A stretch of DNA of 64,000 nt, taken from contig CBDCJH010000002.1 of assembly GCA_965217775.1 (NCBI GenBank), positions 3,318,686-3,382,685 on the forward strand. The letters are read 5' to 3'. Positions 1,066 to 57,740 of the stretch are shown one piece after another. The notes under the pieces were generated by a model. That model worked only from the letters and a program-made list of their open reading frames with translations, was not told the origin of the DNA and did no database searches. Position 1 is the first letter of the stretch. Each line of letters starts with the position of its first letter. This DNA is from Acidobacteriota bacterium (GTDB lineage: Bacteria; Acidobacteriota; UBA6911; RPQK01; JAJDTT01). The position numbers and the translations under genes were made by a program.

Positions 1066-2541
1066 ATGACGGAGGGATGGGGCCGCTGTCACCACCTGTT
1101 CATTCTCACACTTCTGTTCTGCCAAGCTGGCGCAAAGGATCTCCGGGAGCCTCTTGTCATCGGCTCCCGGCTGGAGCTGTTCGTGGACGACTACCTCATC
1201 GAGTCCACCCACGGAGTCGACCTTCGGCTGCATAGTCCGCGGCTTGCCGAGAAGGCCATCTCGTTCGACCGGCCCTGGGAGGGGGTGACCAGCGGCGTGG
1301 TCACGGTCTTCAAGGATGGCGACCTCTATCGGATGTACTACCGGGGGGACAGTAGCGAGCCCGATCACTATGTGGTCCCGTCTCTTCTGCGGAAGGGGGA
1401 ACAGGTGATTCCGGCCCACGATGAGGTGACCTGCTACGCCGAGAGCAGGGACGGAATCACCTGGACCAAACCGAATCTGGGGTTTTTCGAGTTCCAGGGC
1501 TCCAAGCAGAACAACATCGTCTGGACGGAACATTCTCACGCCTTTGCCCCCTTCAAGGACGCGAACCCGGCAGCACCATCATCCCAGCGCTACAAGGCCT
1601 TCGGAATCGAGCGCCGGGACGGCAAGAGCACCCTGGCCGGGTTCGTCTCCTCCGACGGTATTCACTGGAGCAAGATCCGCGAAGAGCCTCTCCTCACCGA
1701 CGGGGCCTTCGACAGTCTCAACTTGGCGTTCTGGGATCCGGTGAGGGAACACTACGTGGCCATCTACCGCGACTTCTGGTACGGAGTCCGGACCATCAAA
1801 CACGCTACCTCCAACGATTTCATCCACTGGACTCGCGGCGAGTGGGCCAGCTTCGGCGACAGGCCGCCCGAGCACCTCTACACCAACGCGGCCCAGCCCT
1901 ATTTTCGGGCGCCCCACATCTATCTTTCCTTCCCCATGCGCTTTCATCCCTGGCGAACCTTTCATGCCGACGCTCCCACGCCAGGCCTGTCCGACGGCGT
2001 CTTCATGACCAGTCGAGACGGCGTCCATTGGGATCGGCGTTTTTTGGAGGCCTTTATCCGTCCCGGCCGGGATCAGAGGAACTGGATCCAACGGACCAAT
2101 GTGACGGCTCCCAGCGTGGTGCCCACCGGGCCGGACGAGATCTCCCTCTACGCCCATCGCAACTACACCTCACCCAGCCACTACTACCAGCGCCTAGTCC
2201 TGCGTACCGATGGGTTCGTTTCTGCTCACGCCGACTACAACGAGGGAGACATAGTTACCAAACCTCTGGTGTTCGAAGGCGAGAACCTGGTCCTCAACTA
2301 CGCCACTTCGGCCCTGGGAAGCATCCGGATCGAGATCCAGGACCAGGCAGGCCATCCCCTGCCCGGCTTTTCGCTGCAGGAATCACCCGTCATCTTCGGC
2401 GACCAGATCGAGCGGGAAGTCGACTGGAAGCGTCCTGCCAGCCGGACCGATCGAGGACCTTTGAGCCGGCTCGCCGGCCGCCCGGTTCGCCTGCGTTTCG
2501 TCATGAAGGACGCCGACCTTTATTCGTTGCAGTTCCGTTAG
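1066..2541 (+). CDS. putative secreted glycoside hydrolase-like protein, unassigned beta-propeller + beta-sandwich family (type A, LELFVD-type)
   Basis: Signal peptide present. Conserved blocks shared with 5 paralogs: LELFVDDYLIE, PWEG, YRMYYRG, CYAESRDGITWTKP, NNIV, SSDGIHW, AFWD, TNAAQPYFRAPHIY, SRDGVHW, LRTDGFVS, GSIRIEIQD, RLRFVMKDADLYS. ATG 1066 follows AAGGAAG; the ORF-track start at 1039 is a TTG overlapping the upstream stop. Confidence 0.8.
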   Translation: MTEGWGRCHHLFILTLLFCQAGAKDLREPLVIGSRLELFVDDYLIESTHGVDLRLHSPRLAEKAISFDRPWEGVTSGVVTVFKDGDLYRMYYRGDSSEPDHYVVPSLLRKGEQVIPAHDEVTCYAESRDGITWTKPNLGFFEFQGSKQNNIVWTEHSHAFAPFKDANPAAPSSQRYKAFGIERRDGKSTLAGFVSSDGIHWSKIREEPLLTDGAFDSLNLAFWDPVREHYVAIYRDFWYGVRTIKHATSNDFIHWTRGEWASFGDRPPEHLYTNAAQPYFRAPHIYLSFPMRFHPWRTFHADAPTPGLSDGVFMTSRDGVHWDRRFLEAFIRPGRDQRNWIQRTNVTAPSVVPTGPDEISLYAHRNYTSPSHYYQRLVLRTDGFVSAHADYNEGDIVTKPLVFEGENLVLNYATSALGSIRIEIQDQAGHPLPGFSLQESPVIFGDQIEREVDWKRPASRTDRGPLSRLAGRPVRLRFVMKDADLYSLQFR

Positions 2542-2594
2542 TCGGCCGGTATGGCGACGAGCCAAAGGGCAAGCGCGAACCGGAGGAAGACACC

Positions 2595-2860
2595 ATGACA
2601 TTGACCACGGCTCAACTGAAACAGTACGAGCAGGAGGGCTTCGCCGTCGGCGGGTGCATACTGTGTGTGAATGAGCTGACCCGACTCCGTGCGGAGATCG
2701 ACAGTCTGATCGAGACTCTTTCTCCGAGGGAGACATCCCGAGAACATGCCCTCGGTTCACTATGGCCGGCCCTACTTCCTGGATTTGCTTCTGGACCAGC
2801 GGCTGTTGGACGTGGCGGAGAAGATCCTGGGGCCCGACATTACGCACTTTACCTCGGGGA
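2595..2860 (+). pseudogene. phytanoyl-CoA dioxygenase (PhyH)-like gene fragment, frameshifted and 3'-truncated
   Basis: A GGAGGAAG RBS precedes the ATG. The N-terminus MTLTTAQLKQYEQEGF..ELTRLRAEIDSLIE resembles a PhyH N-terminus. Similarity continues in another frame (YFLDLLLDQRLLDVAEKILGPDI, ORF 2746-3009) and is then lost. There are only about 90 codons before the next gene. Confidence 0.45.
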
Positions 2861-3031
2861 TGTCGTCACCCGTGGAGCCCGGACCCGAAGCGGTGACGGA
2901 CATCGAGGTCTTCATCGACCATCACCTCATGGATCGTCTGGTTGGAGTGTCGCTGCGTGGCTACACTTTCTGCTGCGCGACATCGAACTGCACGCTCTGC
3001 AATTCGTGAAGGGCTGAGGAGAACCCGCACC

Positions 3032-4483
3032 ATGCACCTGAGAACCAGTGCCATTTTCGCCGCTCTGGCGACGATCATCGCCGAGGGGGTCGCTCCTGCG
3101 GCCGATCCCGTCGACATCGGAACACGGCGAGAGCTGTTTGTGGATCATTTCCTGATCGACAAGGTCGCCGGCGCCCGTCTTCAACTCCACCATCCCCGCC
3201 GGGAAGGTCCAGCCGTGCATTTCGTGGACAAACCCTGGGAGGGCCACCTCAGCGGCTACGTGACCGTGCTCAAGGACGGTCCCCTGTACCGAATGTACTA
3301 TCGGGGCCGTTCCGAATTGGGACGAGGGGACCGAAACGTCGTCGAGGTGACCTGTGTGGCTGAGTCGGAGGACGGCATTCGCTGGACGAAGCCGGCGCTG
3401 GGCTTTTATGAAATCCATGGGACCAGGGAAAACAACGTGGTACTGGCGGGCAAGCCTCCCTACTCGCACAACTTCTCTCCCTGGATCGACACGCGGCCCG
3501 GGGTGCCCGCCAAGGAACGGTACAAGTCCCTTTCCGGCCTGTATCCGGAGGGGTTGGCCCTCTTCGTCTCGGCCGACGGCCTGCGCTGGACGCTGGATAA
3601 GGAGCCAGCCGTCACCTACCCGGGCAAGGCCTTCGACAGCCAGGCGTGTGCCTTCTGGTCAGACAATGAGGGGCAGTACGTCTGTTATTTCCGGACCTTC
3701 AAGAACGGGATGCGCTGGATCTCTCGGACCACCAGCCGGGACTGCCGGAGTTGGACGACACCAGTCGAGATGCACTATGGAGACACCCCACCCGAGCAGT
3801 TCTACACCAATATGACCCAGCCCTATTACCGCGCCCCGCACATCTACATCGCTCTGGCACAGCGCTTTTTCCCCCGCCGCTCGGCGCTGCCGGAAGCGGA
3901 GTCCGCTCGCTTGGTGTCCGACGCGGCACTGAGGGGCTTCAGCAGCGACGTGGCCCTCATGAGCACCCGGGGGGGCAGGGTCTATCATCGAACTTTTCTC
4001 GAATCCTTCATCCGACCCGGACGCACCGCCCGTGACTGGGCAAGCCGCAACAACACCGCCGCCTGGGGCATCGTTCCGGCCGCAGCCGATCCCCGAACTC
4101 TCTACATTTACCGCCAAGCGGACGTGGCTCAGCCCACGAACCACGCGATTCGGTACTCGCTTCGAGTGGATGGCTTTGCCTCGGTGTGGGCTCCTTTTGC
4201 GGGCGGCGAGCTGATCACAAAACCGCTCATCTTTCGGGGAAGCCGACTGGAGATCAATTTCGATACGTCCGCAGCGGGCTCCATCCGTGTCGAGCTCCAG
4301 GATCCATCAGGCCGCCCACTGCCCGGGTTTGTACTCGAAGACTGCGAAGAGATACTCGGAAATGAGATCAGCAGAGTCGTCCGCTGGCGCAACCGAGAGG
4401 ACCTCGGCGCCTTGGCCGGCAAGCCGATCCGCCTCCGATTCGTCATGAAGGACGCCGACCTCTACTCTCTCCGATTCCAGTAG
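3032..4483 (+). CDS. putative glycoside hydrolase-like protein, type A propeller/sandwich family
   Basis: GAGGAG RBS and signal peptide MHLRTSAIFAALATIIAEG. Same conserved blocks as 1066-2541 (RELFVDHFLID, YRMYYRG, CVAESEDGIRWTKP, PYYRAPHIY, LRVDGFAS, GSIRVELQD, RLRFVMKDADLYS). Confidence 0.85.
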   Translation: MHLRTSAIFAALATIIAEGVAPAADPVDIGTRRELFVDHFLIDKVAGARLQLHHPRREGPAVHFVDKPWEGHLSGYVTVLKDGPLYRMYYRGRSELGRGDRNVVEVTCVAESEDGIRWTKPALGFYEIHGTRENNVVLAGKPPYSHNFSPWIDTRPGVPAKERYKSLSGLYPEGLALFVSADGLRWTLDKEPAVTYPGKAFDSQACAFWSDNEGQYVCYFRTFKNGMRWISRTTSRDCRSWTTPVEMHYGDTPPEQFYTNMTQPYYRAPHIYIALAQRFFPRRSALPEAESARLVSDAALRGFSSDVALMSTRGGRVYHRTFLESFIRPGRTARDWASRNNTAAWGIVPAAADPRTLYIYRQADVAQPTNHAIRYSLRVDGFASVWAPFAGGELITKPLIFRGSRLEINFDTSAAGSIRVELQDPSGRPLPGFVLEDCEEILGNEISRVVRWRNREDLGALAGKPIRLRFVMKDADLYSLRFQ

Positions 4484-6259: not shown

Positions 6260-6375
6260 CTACTGCACGGTCGCGGCATGAGAGGGGTCATCGGCAAGAT
6301 TCACCAGTTTCTGAGGATCCTCCCGATGATCGTAGAGTTCCCGGCCCCTCATGCCTTCCTCCCAGTCGCTGAAAC
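6260..6375 (-). pseudogene. sulfatase C-terminal fragment
   Basis: The minus-strand frame reads ..[38 protein letters not shown]. This matches the ELYD-x-x-x-DP-x-x-x-x-NLA signature found near sulfatase C-termini. There is no upstream catalytic part. Confidence 0.45.
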
Positions 6376-7385
6376 GGCAGGGCGCGATCTTCATCTTCAC
6401 GACCGACAACGGCTCGTCGGCCGGAGACCTCGTGTTCAACGCAGGCATGCGGGGCAGGAAGGGGAGCGAATACGATGGGGGCCATCGGGTGCCGTTCTTC
6501 ATCCACTGGCCGGAAGGTGGCCTCATCGGCGGAAGGGACGTCGACCCCATCACAGCTCACGTCGACGTGCTGCCGACTCTGGCTGACCTATGTGGGATCC
6601 GGGCGCCGAAGGGCGTGAAGCTGGATGGGCGGAGCGTCCGCCCCCTGTTGTTCGGTGAGGCGGCCCCGGAGGATGGCAGTTGGCCCGACCGGATCCTGGT
6701 CACGGACTCGCAGCGGGTCAAGGATCCACTCAAGTGGCGCAAGAGTTCGGTCATGACGAGCCGCTGGCGGCTGGTCAATGGAGAAGAGCTCTACGACATC
6801 AAGTCCGACCCTGGCCAACGGCAGGACGTCGCCCCGTCGCATCCGCAGGTGGTGGCACGCCTGAGGGACTTCTACGAATCCTGGTGGGCCGAGTTGGAGC
6901 CGACCTTTCGGCAGGACGCCCGGATCTATCTGGGACACGAAGCGGACAATCCGACGACTCTGACCAGTCACGACTGGATCGCCACGGACTATACCCCCTG
7001 GAACCATTCCCACATCCGCGATGCCCTGACCGGTGCCGGCCACATCGGTCACTGGAACGTCCACGTGGCCCAAAAGGGCGACTATGAGTTCCGCCTGCGT
7101 CGCTGGCCGGCAGCAGCGGACACGCCGATCACGACCGGCCTCGACCCCGGCGAACCGGTCCCGGGCGAGCCGGCCTTCCGGACCACGCCGGGGAAGGCTC
7201 TGGCGATCGTGAAGGCTACCTTGGAGATCGCTGACCGGGAAGTGGAGAAACCCGTCGCCCCCGGTGCCAACGACGTCGTCTTCAACCTGAATCTGAGCCC
7301 CGGCCCCGCCACGCTGACGGCCCGCTTGATCGCCAGGGAAGGCCAAGCCTACGGGGCATACTATGTGTCGGTGAAGAGACGGTGA
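6351..7385 (+). pseudogene. 5'-truncated sulfatase (central and C-terminal part only)
   Basis: It starts inside the conserved block [11 protein letters not shown], followed by [28 protein letters not shown] and ELYDIKSDPGQ, plus a long C-terminal extension. The N-terminal roughly 230 aa carrying the metal ligands and the formylglycine motif are absent. Confidence 0.65.
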
Positions 7386-7481
7386 AGCCGGTCCCACCCC
7401 GACGCGCGCAGTGAGAAGCTCAGTGGAGAACGTCATCGGCACCCGCAACGGATGCCGGGTTCGTGCCAGCCTTCCTATCAA

Positions 7482-7640
7482 CAGTCCGCGGCAAAAGTAC
7501 CGCGTCGCACCGCCCCCGGGGCTACGCTCGACGACAAGGCGCGACGAGGAAGCAGACTCGACCGGATGTGCCCGGGGAGCAACGCATTCCGCCGGAATGC
7601 AGACCCGGTCGAATGCCGTGACGACGTTGGCCCCGGGCTG
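7482..7640 (+). repeat. MITE-like repeat, family A, copy A1
   Basis: About 159 bp, alignable with 9220-9379, 12669-12826 and (reverse) 24594-24750. Imperfect terminal inverted repeats CAGTCCGCGGCAAAAGT.. / ..CCCCGGGCTG. Flanks are TCAA/TCAT. Confidence 0.75.
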
Positions 7641-7691
7641 TCATCCCGCTTACCCGACGAGTTGGAGCGGACGGCAGACTTTCAGTCGAGA

Positions 7692-9167
7692 TCACAACGT
7701 CCAACCGGGACGATATTCCCGCCTGAGCAGCGCGTTGGCCGCCGGAGAGTCGGTGACCTGCAAATTGGCGGCGTCCCAGTCGAGTTTGGCGCCGGTGCGG
7801 TAGGCGAGGCTACCCAGCATGACCGCCTCCGAGATGGGGCCGGAAGCGCCGAAGTTGCAGCTCGTCGCGCTCCCGGTCTTACAGGCGGCAATCCACTCGG
7901 CGCGATGGCCGACTTCAGCCGTACGACGCCAGTCCGGGTGAGCCTTGTAGGCGGCCACCCATGGAGCGCGAAGACCGATTTCCGCACCGATCGACGGCGG
8001 GAGGTTCGGCTCGGGCGGCTTGAAGTCCGCGAACTTTTCGGCGGGCCAGAGCATCCGCTGCCCGTAGCTTGCCAGCAGCATTCCCTCGGTGCCCACGAAG
8101 ACGCCCCAGGGCCAGTCGGGAAACTCGTTCTCCGCAAAAACTGCCGGTGGTTGAGTTCCATGTGTCCAGGTCAGCGTGACCGGCGGCATCTCTCCGCGGG
8201 CCGGGAAACGGTAGCGGACGTGAAGCTGGCCGGGTGTCGTCTCGGGGTGAGGTGGCTGCCCCTCGGCCTCCACTGAGACCGGATAGCGAAGATTCAGAGC
8301 CCGGAAGGCCAACGTCAGGTAGTGGCAGCCCATGTTGCCGAGATTTCCGGAGCCGAAATCCCACCACCGATGCCAGTTGCCGCCGCAACCGCGGGAATAG
8401 GTGGGATGATAGGGGCGGTAAGGCGCCGGCCCCAGGAAAAGATCCCAGTGAAGCCCTTTGGGGATGGGCGGCGTCTCCGTCGGGCGGTCACTTGGGCCGC
8501 GTCCCGAGCGGAGCCAGATATGGCATTCCTCCACCTCGCCGATGGCTCCGGTACGGATCAGTTCGACGACGCGGCGGTGGTTGTCCGAGGCGTGCATCTG
8601 GGTTCCCAATTGTGTCGCCACCTGCTGCTCGGCAGCCACCTTGGCCATCATGCGGGCCTCGAAGACCGAATTGGCTCCCGGCTTCTCGCAGTAAACGTGC
8701 TTGCCGAGCCGCATCGCCGCGACACTCGCCGGAGCGTGGTTGTGGTTTGGAGTACTCACCACCACGGCGTCGATCTGGCGGCCGAATTCGTCGAGCATCC
8801 TCCGGTAATCGTTGAATTTCTTTGCTCCTCCATAGCGGGCGAAGGCGTGGCTCGGAGGATTCCGGCGTCCTGGAGTCAATTCGGCCGCCGCCCGTTCGTC
8901 CACGTCGCAGAGAGCCACGATGTTCTCCCCGGTCATTTCCGGCTGCGAGGACGGCTTGACTCTCATGCCCGACTGGAATTCCACGTTTTCCCCCGCGATG
9001 TGGGCGAGGTTCCATCCCCCCATTCCGCCGGCGCCGACAACGGCGACATCAAGCTTCTCATTGGCCGGGTAGCCCCAAACCGAACCGCTGTTCCGGAGAA
9101 TCACCAACCCCGCCGCTGCACGGCCCGCAGTGCTGAGAAAATGTCGGCGCTTCCACTGGTTCGTCAT
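7692..9167 (-). CDS. Gfo/Idh/MocA-family NAD(P)-dependent oxidoreductase, TAT-exported
   Basis: TAT signal KRRHFLSTAGRAAAG, Rossmann motif VAVVGAGGMGG, and family blocks IVALCDVD, VVVSTPNHNHA, GKHVYCEKP. Confidence 0.85.
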   Translation of the reverse strand: MTNQWKRRHFLSTAGRAAAGLVILRNSGSVWGYPANEKLDVAVVGAGGMGGWNLAHIAGENVEFQSGMRVKPSSQPEMTGENIVALCDVDERAAAELTPGRRNPPSHAFARYGGAKKFNDYRRMLDEFGRQIDAVVVSTPNHNHAPASVAAMRLGKHVYCEKPGANSVFEARMMAKVAAEQQVATQLGTQMHASDNHRRVVELIRTGAIGEVEECHIWLRSGRGPSDRPTETPPIPKGLHWDLFLGPAPYRPYHPTYSRGCGGNWHRWWDFGSGNLGNMGCHYLTLAFRALNLRYPVSVEAEGQPPHPETTPGQLHVRYRFPARGEMPPVTLTWTHGTQPPAVFAENEFPDWPWGVFVGTEGMLLASYGQRMLWPAEKFADFKPPEPNLPPSIGAEIGLRAPWVAAYKAHPDWRRTAEVGHRAEWIAACKTGSATSCNFGASGPISEAVMLGSLAYRTGAKLDWDAANLQVTDSPAANALLRREYRPGWTL

Positions 9168-9219
9168 TGTTACTTCTCCATCATTATCTGGCCATTCCGT
9201 GAGAATTGACTCGGATTAA

Positions 9220-9379
9220 CAGTCCGTGGTGACAGTTCCGCGAGCACCGAGACCGTTCCTGCGCCCGCCGGACAAGGCGCAACGGAGGGAGCATATCGGG
9301 CGTATTTGACCGAATCGCAACGCAGTCCGCGCACGATGCAGGGACGGTCGAATGCCGCGACGACTTTTGCCACGGGCTG
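9220..9379 (+). repeat. MITE-like repeat, family A, copy A2
   Basis: 160 bp. Terminal inverted repeats CAGTCCGTGGTGACAGTTCC / GACTTTTGCCACGGGCTG. Flanked by a perfect 4-bp direct repeat TTAA. Confidence 0.8.
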
Positions 9380-9472
9380 TTAAGGGTGAGTATTGGAAAT
9401 CCGTCATAGAGGTGGCATGGATTTTGGACAACTCAGCAATATTGCTCCAACGCCCGAACCTGGGTCAATCGC

Positions 9473-9499
9473 GGAAGCAAAAGACTGTCCCCTTTTCGG
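9473..9499 (+). promoter_or_regulatory. copy (a) of conserved intergenic motif GGAAG-N-GACTGTCCCCTTTTCGG
   Basis: GGAAGCAAAAGACTGTCCCCTTTTCGG. It lies in the intergenic region upstream of the oxidoreductase start at 9167. Confidence 0.5.
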
Positions 9500-12598: not shown

Positions 12599-12668
12599 CC
12601 GCGGGACGCCGATCTGGCTGCGCCTGCGGCCTCGATCCATCGGCATTACCCAGCTTCTCCAATACTAT

Positions 12669-12826
12669 CAGTCCGTGGTGAAAGTCCCGCGAGCACCGAG
12701 ACCGTTCCTGCGCCCGCCGGACAAGGCGCGATTCGGGTGCATACCGGGAGTATGTGCCCGAATCGCAACGCAGTCCGCCGGGATGCAGGGACGGTCGAAT
12801 GCCGTGGCGACTTTTGCCACGGGCTG
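12669..12826 (+). repeat. MITE-like repeat, family A, copy A3
   Basis: 158 bp. Terminal inverted repeats CAGTCCGTGGTGAAAGTC / GACTTTTGCCACGGGCTG. Flanked by the 4-bp direct repeat CTAT. Confidence 0.8.
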
Positions 12827-13386
12827 CTATGGGCCTCTCCGCCACCCCGGCGGCCCAGGCTGGCCCTCGCGGGTTCCCGGTTGACGCGTGCCACGCCACC
12901 GGCGGGGCTTCCCGTGTTGCTACCCTCTCCCTCTTGTCCACATGCCACCGCCACTACCCCGGCGGAACCGGCCGGTGCTTACGTCGCTCGCTTCCCGGCC
13001 GCTGCCAGCCTTCGTGCGTATCTCAGGCGGGTCGGCTTCCGCATTGCCCGTTTCGAGGCCTGCGCAGCGTTCGCTCAAGCTACGGCCTGCGGACTCGCTG
13101 AGTCGCCCGAGGCGACCCTTTGGCATCGGAGTGCTTCAGTCCAATTCGTTACCTCCTTGAACCGCTCCGACTGCTACCGGCTGGAGCGACAGTTGCCGGG
13201 CGAGTTTCGCACCCGCTAGGAGAAAGCGCCTTTCCATGGCGTACTGAGAAATGCGGGCCAGGGCCGCTGCCCGTCTTCGCCACCCAGGCTTGACTCCCCG
13301 CAGGGTTCCGATGAAGACTTGTCTTCAAACGCGAGCGGTCCTCTTAACCCGGTCCCTGGCTGGCGCGGCGCTGCAGATAAGGCTCG

Positions 13387-21394: not shown

Positions 21395-21555
21395 GGAGCC
21401 TGCGCGGCAGAAATTGATCTACTGCGAAAGCGGTAGAATCGGTCCATATTCCCCCGATTTCTCGGCGAATAGAACAACTATGCACCTCCAAATCGAGAAA
21501 ATCTGGCCTCGATTCCCCACTTTCTCGCTACGATCATTTCTACCGCGCAGACTCC
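21395..21555 (+). repeat. MITE-like repeat, family B, copy B2 (full length)
   Basis: 161 bp with about 38-bp imperfect terminal inverted repeats: GGAGCCTGCGCGGCAGAAATTGATCTACTGCGAAAGCGG versus the reverse complement of the right end GGAGTCTGCGCGGTAGAAATGATCGTAGCGAGAAAGTGG. The termini resemble family A termini. Confidence 0.75.
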
Positions 21556-23173: not shown

Positions 23174-24544
23174 TCAGTACGCTTCCGTAACCCCGAACAA
23201 AGGCGGGTTGCTCATCCACTTGCCCTGGGTGAAATCCGGGAAGTCCACCGGTGCGCTCGAGCGCCGGATCGATTGTTCGGAGAGGGGTGAGATCGCCATC
23301 CAGGCCGCCATGTCGTAGACGTCGATGGGAGGGTCGATCTTCCGCTTGATGCACTCCTTGAAGGCCCGGAGTTCCAGAAAGTCGGTTCCGCCATGTCCTT
23401 TGCGGATTCCCTCGGCCAAGTATCTCTTCCACAGCGGATGCTCGAACCGTTCCTGAAATCGATCGAAGGACTGCCACCGGTGCCGTGGCTCCATGCCGTC
23501 CAGGTAGATCATGGACTTGTCCTTCGAACGGCTGTCCGCATCCTGCATCCAGATGCCTTTCGTACCCTGGACCACGTACAGGAAGGAGTTGGGTCGGGGC
23601 AGGCGGGTGTCGAACTTGATGACCACCGTTTCCTCATTCGAACACTTGATGGTCGTGGTGACGAGATCACCCTGCTTCCAGGCGATGTTTCGACGCGGGT
23701 GACCGGCCGGAAGATTCTCCTCGGACCATTTGCCCAAGCCTCGTGACTTGGTGGCCATCGAGGTCAGGTATTCGAAACGGTTCCCTCGTTGAATGTTCAG
23801 GCAGTGGGCTACGGGACCGATGCTGTGGGTCGGATAGAGCTCTCCGTTGCGGTACTGGTTGTGCATGGAGCGGTAGTCCCCTTCCCCCTTGGGAGTGGGA
23901 CCCGTGCCCTTTCCCAGGACCAGGCGTTCGCGCAGATCATGGGCATAACCGCACTGGCAGTGGATCAGTTCCCCGAATACGCTCTCGCGGACCATTCTGA
24001 GGATCGCCATGTTGTATCGGGCATAGCAGTTATTCTCCAGGAGCATGCAGGGAACCCGGGTTTCCTCGTAGGTCTCCACCAGTTCCCAGCACTCTTCGAT
24101 GGAGTTGGCCGGGCCGACTTCGACTCCCGCATAGATTCCGGCCTTCATGGAATCGACGGCCATGGGGATGTGCAGCTCCCAGGGAGTGGCGATGACGACA
24201 CCGTCGAGGTCATCGCGTTGCAGCAATTCGAGGTAGGAGCGCTCATCCTTGCCGTACCCCTCGGGACGTGAGCGGCCCGACTCCTCGACCGCGTCCTGAG
24301 CTCGACGCAGGTTGTCGGGGGCGATGTCGCAAACCGCTGGTATGCTCACGTCGGAAAACCCCAGACACAACCTCAGGAGCTTCGATCCCCGGCCTCCTAT
24401 GCCAATCAAGCCGAGGCTGACCTTCTGGTCATCGGCGCCCTTCAGGATGGCGGGCGTCAGACCGAGTCCAAGGCCGGCAGCGGACACCTGCTTGAGGAAA
24501 CCTCGGCGGTCGGATTGCGAAACGCTCATGTTCTGTCGGTTCAT
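23174..24544 (-). CDS. GH109-like NAD-dependent glycosidase (Gfo/Idh/MocA fold), TAT-exported
   Basis: TAT signal DRRGFLKQVSAAGLG and Rossmann motif LGLIGIGGRGS. Blocks typical of the GH109 alpha-N-acetylgalactosaminidase family: ATPWELH, EVGPANSIEECWELVETYEETRVPCMLLENNCY, GELIHCQCGYAHDLR, NGELYPTHSIGP. The ORF-track start at 24625 lies inside repeat A4, so ATG 24544 was chosen. Confidence 0.8.
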   Translation of the reverse strand: MNRQNMSVSQSDRRGFLKQVSAAGLGLGLTPAILKGADDQKVSLGLIGIGGRGSKLLRLCLGFSDVSIPAVCDIAPDNLRRAQDAVEESGRSRPEGYGKDERSYLELLQRDDLDGVVIATPWELHIPMAVDSMKAGIYAGVEVGPANSIEECWELVETYEETRVPCMLLENNCYARYNMAILRMVRESVFGELIHCQCGYAHDLRERLVLGKGTGPTPKGEGDYRSMHNQYRNGELYPTHSIGPVAHCLNIQRGNRFEYLTSMATKSRGLGKWSEENLPAGHPRRNIAWKQGDLVTTTIKCSNEETVVIKFDTRLPRPNSFLYVVQGTKGIWMQDADSRSKDKSMIYLDGMEPRHRWQSFDRFQERFEHPLWKRYLAEGIRKGHGGTDFLELRAFKECIKRKIDPPIDVYDMAAWMAISPLSEQSIRRSSAPVDFPDFTQGKWMSNPPLFGVTEAY

Positions 24545-24593
24545 CCTGTTCCTCCTGGCCCGACCGAGCCGTCTTCCCGGCGGCAGGTTCGGT

Positions 24594-24750
24594 AGTCTGT
24601 GGCGAAAGTCGTCACGCCATTCCACTGGGTCTGCATTCCGGCAGACCGGGTTGCTTCTCGATCACATAGGGTCGAATAGGTTCCCTCGTCGCGCCTTGTC
24701 CGGCGGACGCAGCCCCCGTCTCGGCGCTACGCAGGATTTCTACCACGGGA
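24594..24750 (-). repeat. MITE-like repeat, family A, copy A4 (inverted orientation)
   Basis: The reverse complement aligns with A1-A3 (..CCGCCGGACAAGGCGCGACGAGG.., ..GCCGGAATGCAGACCC..). It sits 50 bp upstream of the GH109-like start and directly abuts motif copy (c). Confidence 0.7.
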
Positions 24751-24804
24751 GGGAGAAATAGACTGTCCCCTTTTCGCCCTTTCCCCTTTTCGCCCTTTTC
24801 GGTC
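24751..24804 (+). promoter_or_regulatory. copy (c) of conserved intergenic motif, with internally triplicated CCCCTTTTCGCC tail
   Basis: GGGAGAAATAGACTGTCCCCTTTTCGCCCTTTCCCCTTTTCGCCCTTTTCGGTC. It lies in the divergent region between the GH109-like gene and the sulfatase at 24884. Confidence 0.5.
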
Positions 24805-57086: not shown

Positions 57087-57119
57087 CTGATGGAGATTAT
57101 AAAGAGTGGTTGACACGCT

Positions 57120-57740
57120 CTACAGTTCTGGTGACACGCTCGGCCTATCGGCCCACGTTCCGCCACCGGCGGCAGAAACCCCAGCCGCCAAGATGTTGAT
57201 CGCAGCGTTATGGTCCCTGTCCATCCGGAGTCCGCAGGTGCGGCACCTGTAGGTCTCACTGCGTCCCGGATCGTGACGACTGCCGCACCTGTGACAGTCC
57301 TGCGACGTGTATTTCGGGTCCACTTCTACGAACTCCCGACCGGCCCACTCTGCCTTGTACTGGAGTTGATTGCGTAGAAGTCCCCAGGATTGGGTGAGGA
57401 TCTCCCGATTCAGGCCCTTCTTGTGCAGGCCCTTGGTGGACATCCCCGTGATGTTCAGCTTCTCGACGGCGATGAGTCCGTGAGAACGCACGATCCGAGT
57501 CGTGGCCCGGTGGCACGTATTCCGGTTCCTGACCTTCTCGCGGTAGCGTAGCCGTGCCAATTGCCGGACCCGCTTCTTGCGGCGGTTCGATCCCCGCTTG
57601 CAACGGGCAACTCTTCTCTGCTGACGCTTGATCTCCGCCCAATTGCGGCGGTGGCGTTCGATCCGTTCTCCGGTGGACAAGACGGCCCGTTTACGGACTC
57701 CAAGGTCGATCCCCACCGCAGCGTCACAACGGGGGAAATC
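57120..57740 (-). mobile_element. tnpB: IS200/IS605-family tnpB (RNA-guided nuclease) remnant, 5'-truncated
   Basis: RuvC-I AVGIDLGV, RuvC-II IAVEKLN, zinc finger CHRCG..CRTCG and RuvC-III DRDHNAAINI are all present. Homology starts only about 3 residues before RuvC-I, so the N-terminal WED/REC half is missing. No tnpA was seen. The residual ORF overlaps the sulfatase start at 57745 in antisense. Confidence 0.8.

Follow-up and report, generated by a model that had tools for sequence, protein, structure and literature searches.

The Correia/NEMIS elements of Neisseria, the ERIC elements of enterobacteria and the RUP elements of pneumococcus are palindromic MITEs of approximately 100-170 bp. 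They carry no ORF, are bounded by terminal inverted repeats, lie between genes next to short TA-containing duplications and can fold over their whole length as a hairpin in a transcript. The elements analyzed here, designated family A, have no sequence relationship to any of these. They duplicate 4 bp at YTAR rather than TA, span several phyla, have an interior that is better conserved than the termini and fold asymmetrically with respect to strand. MITEs are a known kind of element and all the testable features of a MITE are present in family A; the unexpected feature is the conserved, strand-asymmetric core.

Among insertion sequences (IS), IS5 duplicates a 4-bp target, 5′-YTAR-3′ (PMC5009759), with a preference for YTAR/CTAG (PMC5009759; PMC10379815), and in the IS701 family the duplication is likewise exactly 4 bp and highly conserved (PMC2266710). 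Family A and the autonomous IS that we propose as its partner resemble IS5 in the 4-bp duplication at YTAR/CTAG, present in both, and in the DDE_Tnp_1 fold and the IS5 NCBIfam hits of the partner's transposase. They differ from it in that the top NCBIfam match of the partner is IS1182, with all scores under the curated cut-offs, and in that the interior of the MITE is unrelated to the partner IS. The ends of the E. coli IS5, which we take to be GGAAGGTGCG, are likewise unlike the CAGYCCGTGG... termini found here. The likeness to IS1182 lies in the organization of the partner, approximately 1.5 kb in length with one ORF of 450-480 aa that contains DUF772 and DDE_Tnp_1(_6) and has NF033551 as its top match; the difference lies in a score under the 270-bit cut-off and in a duplication that here is strictly 4 bp. 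With IS701 the elements share the duplication of exactly 4 bp, but the partner's transposase has no NCBIfam hit to an IS701 model.

The analysis concerned a 64-kb stretch of DNA, referred to as the window, and was extended to other genomes and to metagenome contigs. As detailed below, the four repeats found in the window are very probably copies of a non-coding MITE of about 158 bp that depends for its mobilisation on a DDE transposase, of the IS5/IS1182 group, supplied in trans.

Four copies of family A in the window

An initial inspection of the sequence alone had pointed to four copies of a repeat of about 158 bp. All four are there (Table 1), at coordinates that were exact or off by no more than 2 nt, and they align with a mean column identity of 81%. 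A 21-base core pattern, drawn from the blocks that are invariant among the copies, occurs in the window at these four sites only (0 expected, none in 100 shuffles), and a covariance model (CM) built from 31 diverse relatives gives exactly four hits over the 64 kb. The same inspection, hereafter the sequence-only reading, had described the ends of the element as imperfect terminal inverted repeats. The termini it proposed are correct for A1, A2 and A3; those of A4 are degenerate (CCTCCCGTGG...CCACAGACTA). The repeat is not limited to the termini, however, as the whole element constitutes one imperfect palindrome. The 4-mers flanking A1, A2 and A3 are those originally read, whereas no recognisable 4-bp duplication was found at the flanks of A4.

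Table 1. Coordinates of the family A copies in the window and of their component features.
Feature	Position	Strand	Remarks
Copy A1	7482-7640	+	159 bp; CM 92 bits; decayed
Copy A2	9220-9379	+	160 bp; CM 137 bits
Copy A3	12669-12826	+	158 bp; most intact; CM 174 bits; near-perfect long hairpin
Copy A4	24593-24752	-	160 bp; CM 99 bits; decayed; termini mutated
A1 flanks	7478-7481, 7641-7644		TCAA (left), TCAT (right)
A2 flanks	9216-9219, 9380-9383		TTAA (left), TTAA (right)
A3 left target-site duplication	12665-12668	.	CTAT; flank sequence and empty-site comparison
A3 right target-site duplication	12827-12830	.	CTAT; flank sequence and empty-site comparison
A3 left terminal inverted repeat	12669-12686	+	CAGTCCGTGGTGAAAGTC; identical to the left end of autonomous IS L189, L098, L163, L197
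A3 right terminal inverted repeat	12809-12826	+	GACTTTTGCCACGGGCTG
A3 conserved inner core	12720-12788	+	GACAAGGCGC (12720-12729), variable apical stem-loop, GCAAC (12765-12769), ATGCAG (12783-12788)

The copies are all intergenic, as had been claimed, and the gene cluster around them encodes sulfatase, GH109/GFO, BNR and peptidase proteins. Two of them do lie just upstream of genes for Gfo/Idh/MocA-fold enzymes. A2 occupies the 5′ region of the GFO_IDH_MocA gene 7692-9167(-), 52 nt upstream of the gene and antisense to it, and A4 is found 45 nt upstream of the GH109/GFO_IDH_MocA gene 23174-24547(-), in sense orientation. Both are inserted between the start codon of the GFO-fold gene and a motif, GACTGTCCCCTTTTC (reverse complement GAAAAGGGGACAGTC), that is repeated in the window at 9483, 10814, 24761, 31070, 31098, 55979 (+) and 52501 (-). 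The motif is found upstream of minus-strand genes and may represent a shared promoter or operator; it was not found in the 88 genome loci described in the next section.

A separate feature lies at 13075-13218 (-), 250 nt from A3, and strongly matches RF02003, the D1-D4 model of group II introns (85 bits, E 3e-17). Because the 780-bp gap around this match contains neither a reverse-transcriptase ORF nor a domain V/VI hit, the feature resembles a fragment of an intron or an intron that lacks an ORF. A link between family A and the intron was rejected, no homologous region being found beside the other copies, and a 14-nt likeness of GGTGAAAGTCCCGC to the start of the RF02003 consensus was left as a coincidence.

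Family A in other genomes

The sequence-only reading had made the existence of further copies outside the window a test of its proposal. A scan with the core pattern, which imposes three core motifs, over a sample holding one genome per species returned at least 88 stretches, mostly from Acidobacteriota. Approximately 16 of the listed stretches are chance matches inside genes; the remainder are full elements of 156-161 bp. Many copies from different species have a core identical to that of A3, and single genomes can harbor several, with at least 15 loci on chromosome OZ253580.1 and at least 12 in assembly CATOST01.

Among the matches listed, the Acidobacteriota MAGs with copies include Vicinamibacterales and Aminicenantes, and the other labels are Gammaproteobacteria, Longimicrobiales, Eisenbacteria, Actinomycetota and 'delta proteobacterium'. 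Since MAG labels can be wrong, this spread across phyla depends on the quality of the binning. The strongest cases for it are two complete gammaproteobacterial chromosomes, OY761822.1 and OY760226.1. BLASTN comparison of A3 with the PLSDB plasmids and the INPHARED phages yielded no match. Four pattern matches on viral contigs were discarded as chance matches, none being confirmed by the CM. No description of family A was found in open-access papers (ISfinder not included) on Acidobacteria MITEs or IS1182 MITEs.

Target-site duplications and empty sites

In an alignment of 71 copies, similarity starts and ends exactly at CAG...CTG and the flanks are unrelated. All of these copies are 156-161 bp long, with consensus termini CAGTCCGTGG ... 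CCACGGGCTG, and no ORF is needed to explain the element. The duplications proposed from the window recur in these copies from public genomes. Of the 71, 37 have the same 4-mer on both sides and another 18 have 4-mers that match at three positions out of four, against 0/71 identical when the next 4 nt outward are used as a control. The target consensus resembles YTAR, CTAG being the commonest sequence. Since a number of the duplicated 4-mers (CTAT, GTAA, TTAG, GTAG, TCAA, TTGA, TTAC) are non-palindromic and in direct orientation, they are true duplications and not extensions of the palindrome.

Empty sites were found both between species and between close relatives. L053 reads CTTG[element]CTTG where the orthologous site of L041 has a single CTTG; at another site, L041 reads CTAG[element]CTAG and L053 has a single CTAG. 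Three contigs found by exact protein match (L210, L211 and L212) represent close relatives of the window. A2 is present in all three. A3 is missing from L211: over this site the relative matches the window at 99.5% identity, and its sequence, ...ccaatactatgggcc..., contains CTAT only once. A1 is missing from L210, where both 4-mers are kept (TCAA+CCAT, versus TCAA[A1]TCAT in the window). The A1 loss looks like an excision footprint, that is, a product of rejoining after excision; the same sequence would result if the palindrome were lost precisely during replication.

The stop codon of a neighboring gene falls inside the duplicated 4-mer (xTAG or xTAA) in 17 of the 61 copies with callable neighbors, an overlap that is expected from a YTAR target in genomes of 65-70% GC. 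Insertion at a stop codon leaves the reading frame intact. With genes called by a crude GC3-based caller, 20 copies have the same orientation as tandem neighbors and 13 the opposite one, 17 lie between convergent and 11 between divergent genes; the bias in orientation is not significant. A cis-regulatory RNA is not indicated, as this 20/13/17/11 mix shows no constant orientation or position relative to a gene.

The region around A1 is structurally variable between near-identical strains. Where the window has A1 and a sulfatase fragment (6351-7385) limited to the C-terminal portion of the domain, L211 and L212 contain two GFO_IDH_MocA genes in tandem, the second being 84% identical (7395-7687 versus L211 6901-8600). 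In L210, a TnpB gene (OrfB_IS605 + Cas12f1-like_TNB) occupies 2485-3633, where BNR and sulfatase genes are found in the window. Of this TnpB element, the window has at 57091-57734 (-) only the 3′ 644 bp, 98.6% identical and apparently a truncated relic.

An autonomous IS with the same termini

Metagenome contigs were scanned with the left terminus extended by one base that was meant to exclude intact MITE copies and their right ends; with this extra base only 2 matches were left in the 88 genome loci. The scan returned at least 120 stretches. Dozens of the matches listed consist of a YTAR sequence joined to CAGCCCGTGGTGAAAGTC, followed by 60-100 nt and then by an ORF starting MAMGKRK...LWI. 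Autonomous IS with the same 18-bp terminus, 1.45-1.56 kb in length, for which the sequence-only reading had suggested a search, do exist in metagenome contigs. Complete copies measure 1446-1559 bp and have the right end ...CTT(C/T)(C/T)(A/G)CCACGG(G/A)CTG. They are flanked by duplications of CTAG (L104, L115, L121, L144, L155, L165, L189) or TTAG (L124, L150). The left ends had to be identical, given how the pattern was built; the right end, the ORF and the duplications were found independently of it. The search covered this terminus; the subfamilies from other phyla have unrelated termini.

The transposase is encoded by a single ORF with DUF772 and DDE_Tnp_1 domains (Pfam). Its top NCBIfam model, NF033551 (IS1182), scores 156-182 bits, below the cut-off of 270, in a match covering only ~300/488 profile positions; the IS5 model NF033581 scores 79-86 bits, below the cut-off of 140. 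As the scores fall below the curated cut-offs of both models, the family assignment is approximate, and the protein may be placed in the IS5/IS1182 group without being a certified member of either family. Five transposases that were compared are 60-65% identical to each other, with nearly constant termini. Plasmid homologues are ~50% identical; the one on pDMC1 has related ends and a TGTA duplication. The IS group is abundant in soil metagenomes, where relatives of the transposase number at least 8000 candidates at E<=1e-50, and one transposase record, named from a Terriglobales MAG, indicates that it occurs in Acidobacteriota. Family A forms part of a pairing between a very abundant soil IS group and many short derivatives.

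As had been claimed from the sequence, the window yielded no DDE transposase (20 of its ORFs were domain-scanned), and tblastn with the partner transposases gave no hits in the window or in the 88 loci (700 kb from MITE-bearing genomes). Because the IS is absent from those loci, its pairing with the MITE is based on matching ends and duplications and not on co-occurrence in the same genome. Among the 1980 ORFs of the 88 loci, no recurrent ORF that could be a hidden transposase was detected, only syntenic orthologues; orphan ends lying 0.6-3 kb apart in the same loci delimited only truncated relics and the mini-derivatives of 57 and 64 nt described in the last section.

On the whole, every test proposed in the sequence-only reading favors a non-autonomous element mobilised by a transposase. 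In the mechanism that we envisage, the transposase would bind the termini common to the IS and the MITE and would cut the target with a 4-bp stagger. Movement is probably of the cut-and-paste type, judging from the loss of A1 with both 4-mers kept in L210.

A peculiarity of the IS is seen in 4 of the 10 complete copies (L165, L155, L124 and L144). In these, the transposase frame continues across the right terminal repeat and is closed by a TAG that belongs to the duplicated CTAG or TTAG, so that the target provides the stop codon.

A conserved hairpin inside the element

A3 folds into a single hairpin with an MFE of -117 kcal/mol (z = -12.3); the folds of A1, A2 and A4 have decayed to between -60 and -78 kcal/mol. 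When this single-hairpin structure was applied to an alignment of 31 sequences, 82.5% of the cells were paired, versus 31-38% with the partners slid by 1-3 columns. Double changes, affecting both sides, are found in 49/66 pairs, 25/40 in the inner stems. Compensatory covariation, which the sequence-only reading had regarded as the mark of a conserved RNA rather than of a transposon relic, is therefore present and strong, yet it does not displace the transposon reading, because the duplications and the insertion polymorphism coexist with it. It shows that the hairpin is under selection besides transposon mobility. By itself, covariation does not show that a folded strand is involved, since the arms of an inverted repeat may bind the same protein as double-stranded DNA.

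The part kept between subfamilies of different phyla is the inner ~110 nt with the CAAGGCG / CAACGC bulges. The subfamilies from other phyla have wholly different terminal stems (GGAACCGCGCAGC..., TGGTGTGTCC..., TGGCCTGTAAC...), the internal loops and the length being kept. The invariance of the core motifs in the first set is in part ascertainment, as three motifs were imposed by the first pattern; CAAGGCG ... CAACGC around the apical stem was also recovered by the CM and terminus searches, which were not core-selected. In a plain MITE the termini would be expected to be conserved and the interior to vary; family A shows the opposite, and in this respect speaks against the explanation that we favor. 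Beyond the ~18-bp termini, no similarity was found between the interior of the IS and the core of the MITE. The interior of the MITE is a separate hairpin module of ~110 nt and not a remnant of a deleted IS.

The two strands are not equivalent. In 19/21 clusters, the fold of the strand defined by the orientation of the core is more stable than that of the complement, with a mean difference of ~10 kcal/mol (p = 2e-4); only the decayed A1 and A4 deviate. The ratio of G.U to A.C appositions is 17:15 in the terminal stem and 26:5 and 15:3 in the inner stems, an asymmetry that stems partly from G.U at shared positions, in clusters that are not independent. Recent one-sided changes within the main subfamily (19 G.U versus 15 A.C) show no strand preference.

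In our reading of these data, the termini behave as ordinary double-stranded transposase sites and the core is constrained on one folded strand, the constraint acting on the propagating lineage and not on each inserted copy; the inserted copies decay neutrally. We infer that the core is selected at the step of element propagation, folding as single-stranded DNA or RNA. It is apparently no host regulatory element, because copies decay symmetrically and the orientation bias is not significant.

Tentatively, the ~110-nt hairpin could be a structured module that acts as a single strand, and as one specific strand, serving either as a mobilisation fold or as a mobile non-coding RNA. In this reading, which we hold possible but doubtful, the features of the module are two symmetric CAA bulges around a GCG/CGC helix, a k-turn-like CCGAG/CGAAU loop and conserved G.U pairs. 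Two versions can be formulated. The module could be a protein-binding fold that transposases of the IS5/IS1182 type need, or exploit, for short elements; or it could be a mobile non-coding RNA carried between phyla on interchangeable transposon ends. Should the core be needed for mobilisation, single-strand structure would matter for a hardly studied family of DDE transposons. Family A provides a clean case of a MITE whose interior is more conserved than its ends and whose strand-specific hairpin is kept across phyla.

As an alternative, the element could be first and foremost a structured non-coding RNA, or a motif of single-stranded DNA, that has its own function. The functional unit would then be the ~110-nt inner hairpin with its two CAA bulges, for which the transposon ends serve only as a vehicle. 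Covariation of the inner stems across subfamilies would fit this explanation, although covariation of the arms can arise at the DNA level too. So would the persistence of the bulges and of at least one G.U pair despite unrelated termini and different phyla, as well as a length that stays at ~156-161 nt across diverged subfamilies. The better folding of the top strand and the G.U excess, confined to the inner stems, point in the same direction; part of this asymmetry, however, is inherited through common G.U positions. A functional RNA is harder to reconcile with the decay of copies without strand preference, A1 and A4 having lost much of the fold, with copies that appear or vanish between near-identical strains, and with an orientation relative to genes (20 versus 13) that does not differ significantly from chance. 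Furthermore, no copy matched any Rfam 15 model at gathering scores or even at E<=10. On balance, we consider this explanation unlikely.

It is extremely improbable that family A is a REP/REPIN-type palindrome propagated via single-stranded DNA by a transposase of the RAYT (Y1 HUH) type: such an origin would account for a long, multi-copy, intergenic hairpin with strand-asymmetric folding, but fixed 4-bp direct duplications and empty sites with one 4-mer are not made by REP/REPIN insertion, the GTAG...CTAC head arrangement is absent, no RAYT gene occurs among the ORFs given family assignments and a DDE IS with the same ends exists. An integron attC site, or another target of site-specific recombination, could also combine imperfect palindromes and conserved unpaired bases in a position between genes, but is scarcely conceivable here, given that the termini are CAG...CTG and not RYYYAAC...GTTRRRY (as judged from the alignment), that the neighboring genes have mixed orientations, that no integrase is found among the window ORFs scanned and that insertion duplicates 4 bp.

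Other short elements in the same genomes

Besides the MITE mobilised in trans proposed above, the window contains a second palindromic MITE family, unrelated to A, at 21395-21555. It is ~162 bp long, has the ends GGAGCCTGCGCGG...CCGCGCAGACTCC and folds with an MFE of -64 kcal/mol (z -6.7). The same Acidobacteriota genomes contain both families, the second at 96-99% identity, and in one instance the second is nested inside a family A copy (L049 3303-3465), flanked by TA. L211 and L212 carry the second family at the equivalent of window position ~11000, where the window is without the insertion. The two families represent recurrent and recently active insertions in Acidobacteriota genomes. Both occur at stop codons and in the 5′ regions of polysaccharide-degradation genes, break assemblies and may be mistaken for regulatory RNAs.

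Among the matches listed, the IS terminus found in family A also flanks other short families, namely minimal hairpins of 48-50 nt and a 'GGGCACGACTTTAGTCGTGCC' family. A mini-derivative of 57 nt has the left terminus CAGTCCG joined to an identical internal heptamer; one of 64 nt comprises only the outer stem, and the ~50-nt hairpins consist of the two termini alone. Such mini-derivatives are located at L049 5229-5286, L040 1891-1948, L009 1582-1645 and L127 932-981, several of them with CTAG-like flanks. A ~50-nt hairpin, GGCGGTGAAAGCCCCGCGACCGCACGCGGCTTTCACCACGC, lies at ~1690-1740 of L041 and is kept in L035 and L053 beside the family A insertion site; its arms resemble the outer stem GGTGAAAG..., and it may be an old mini-derivative.
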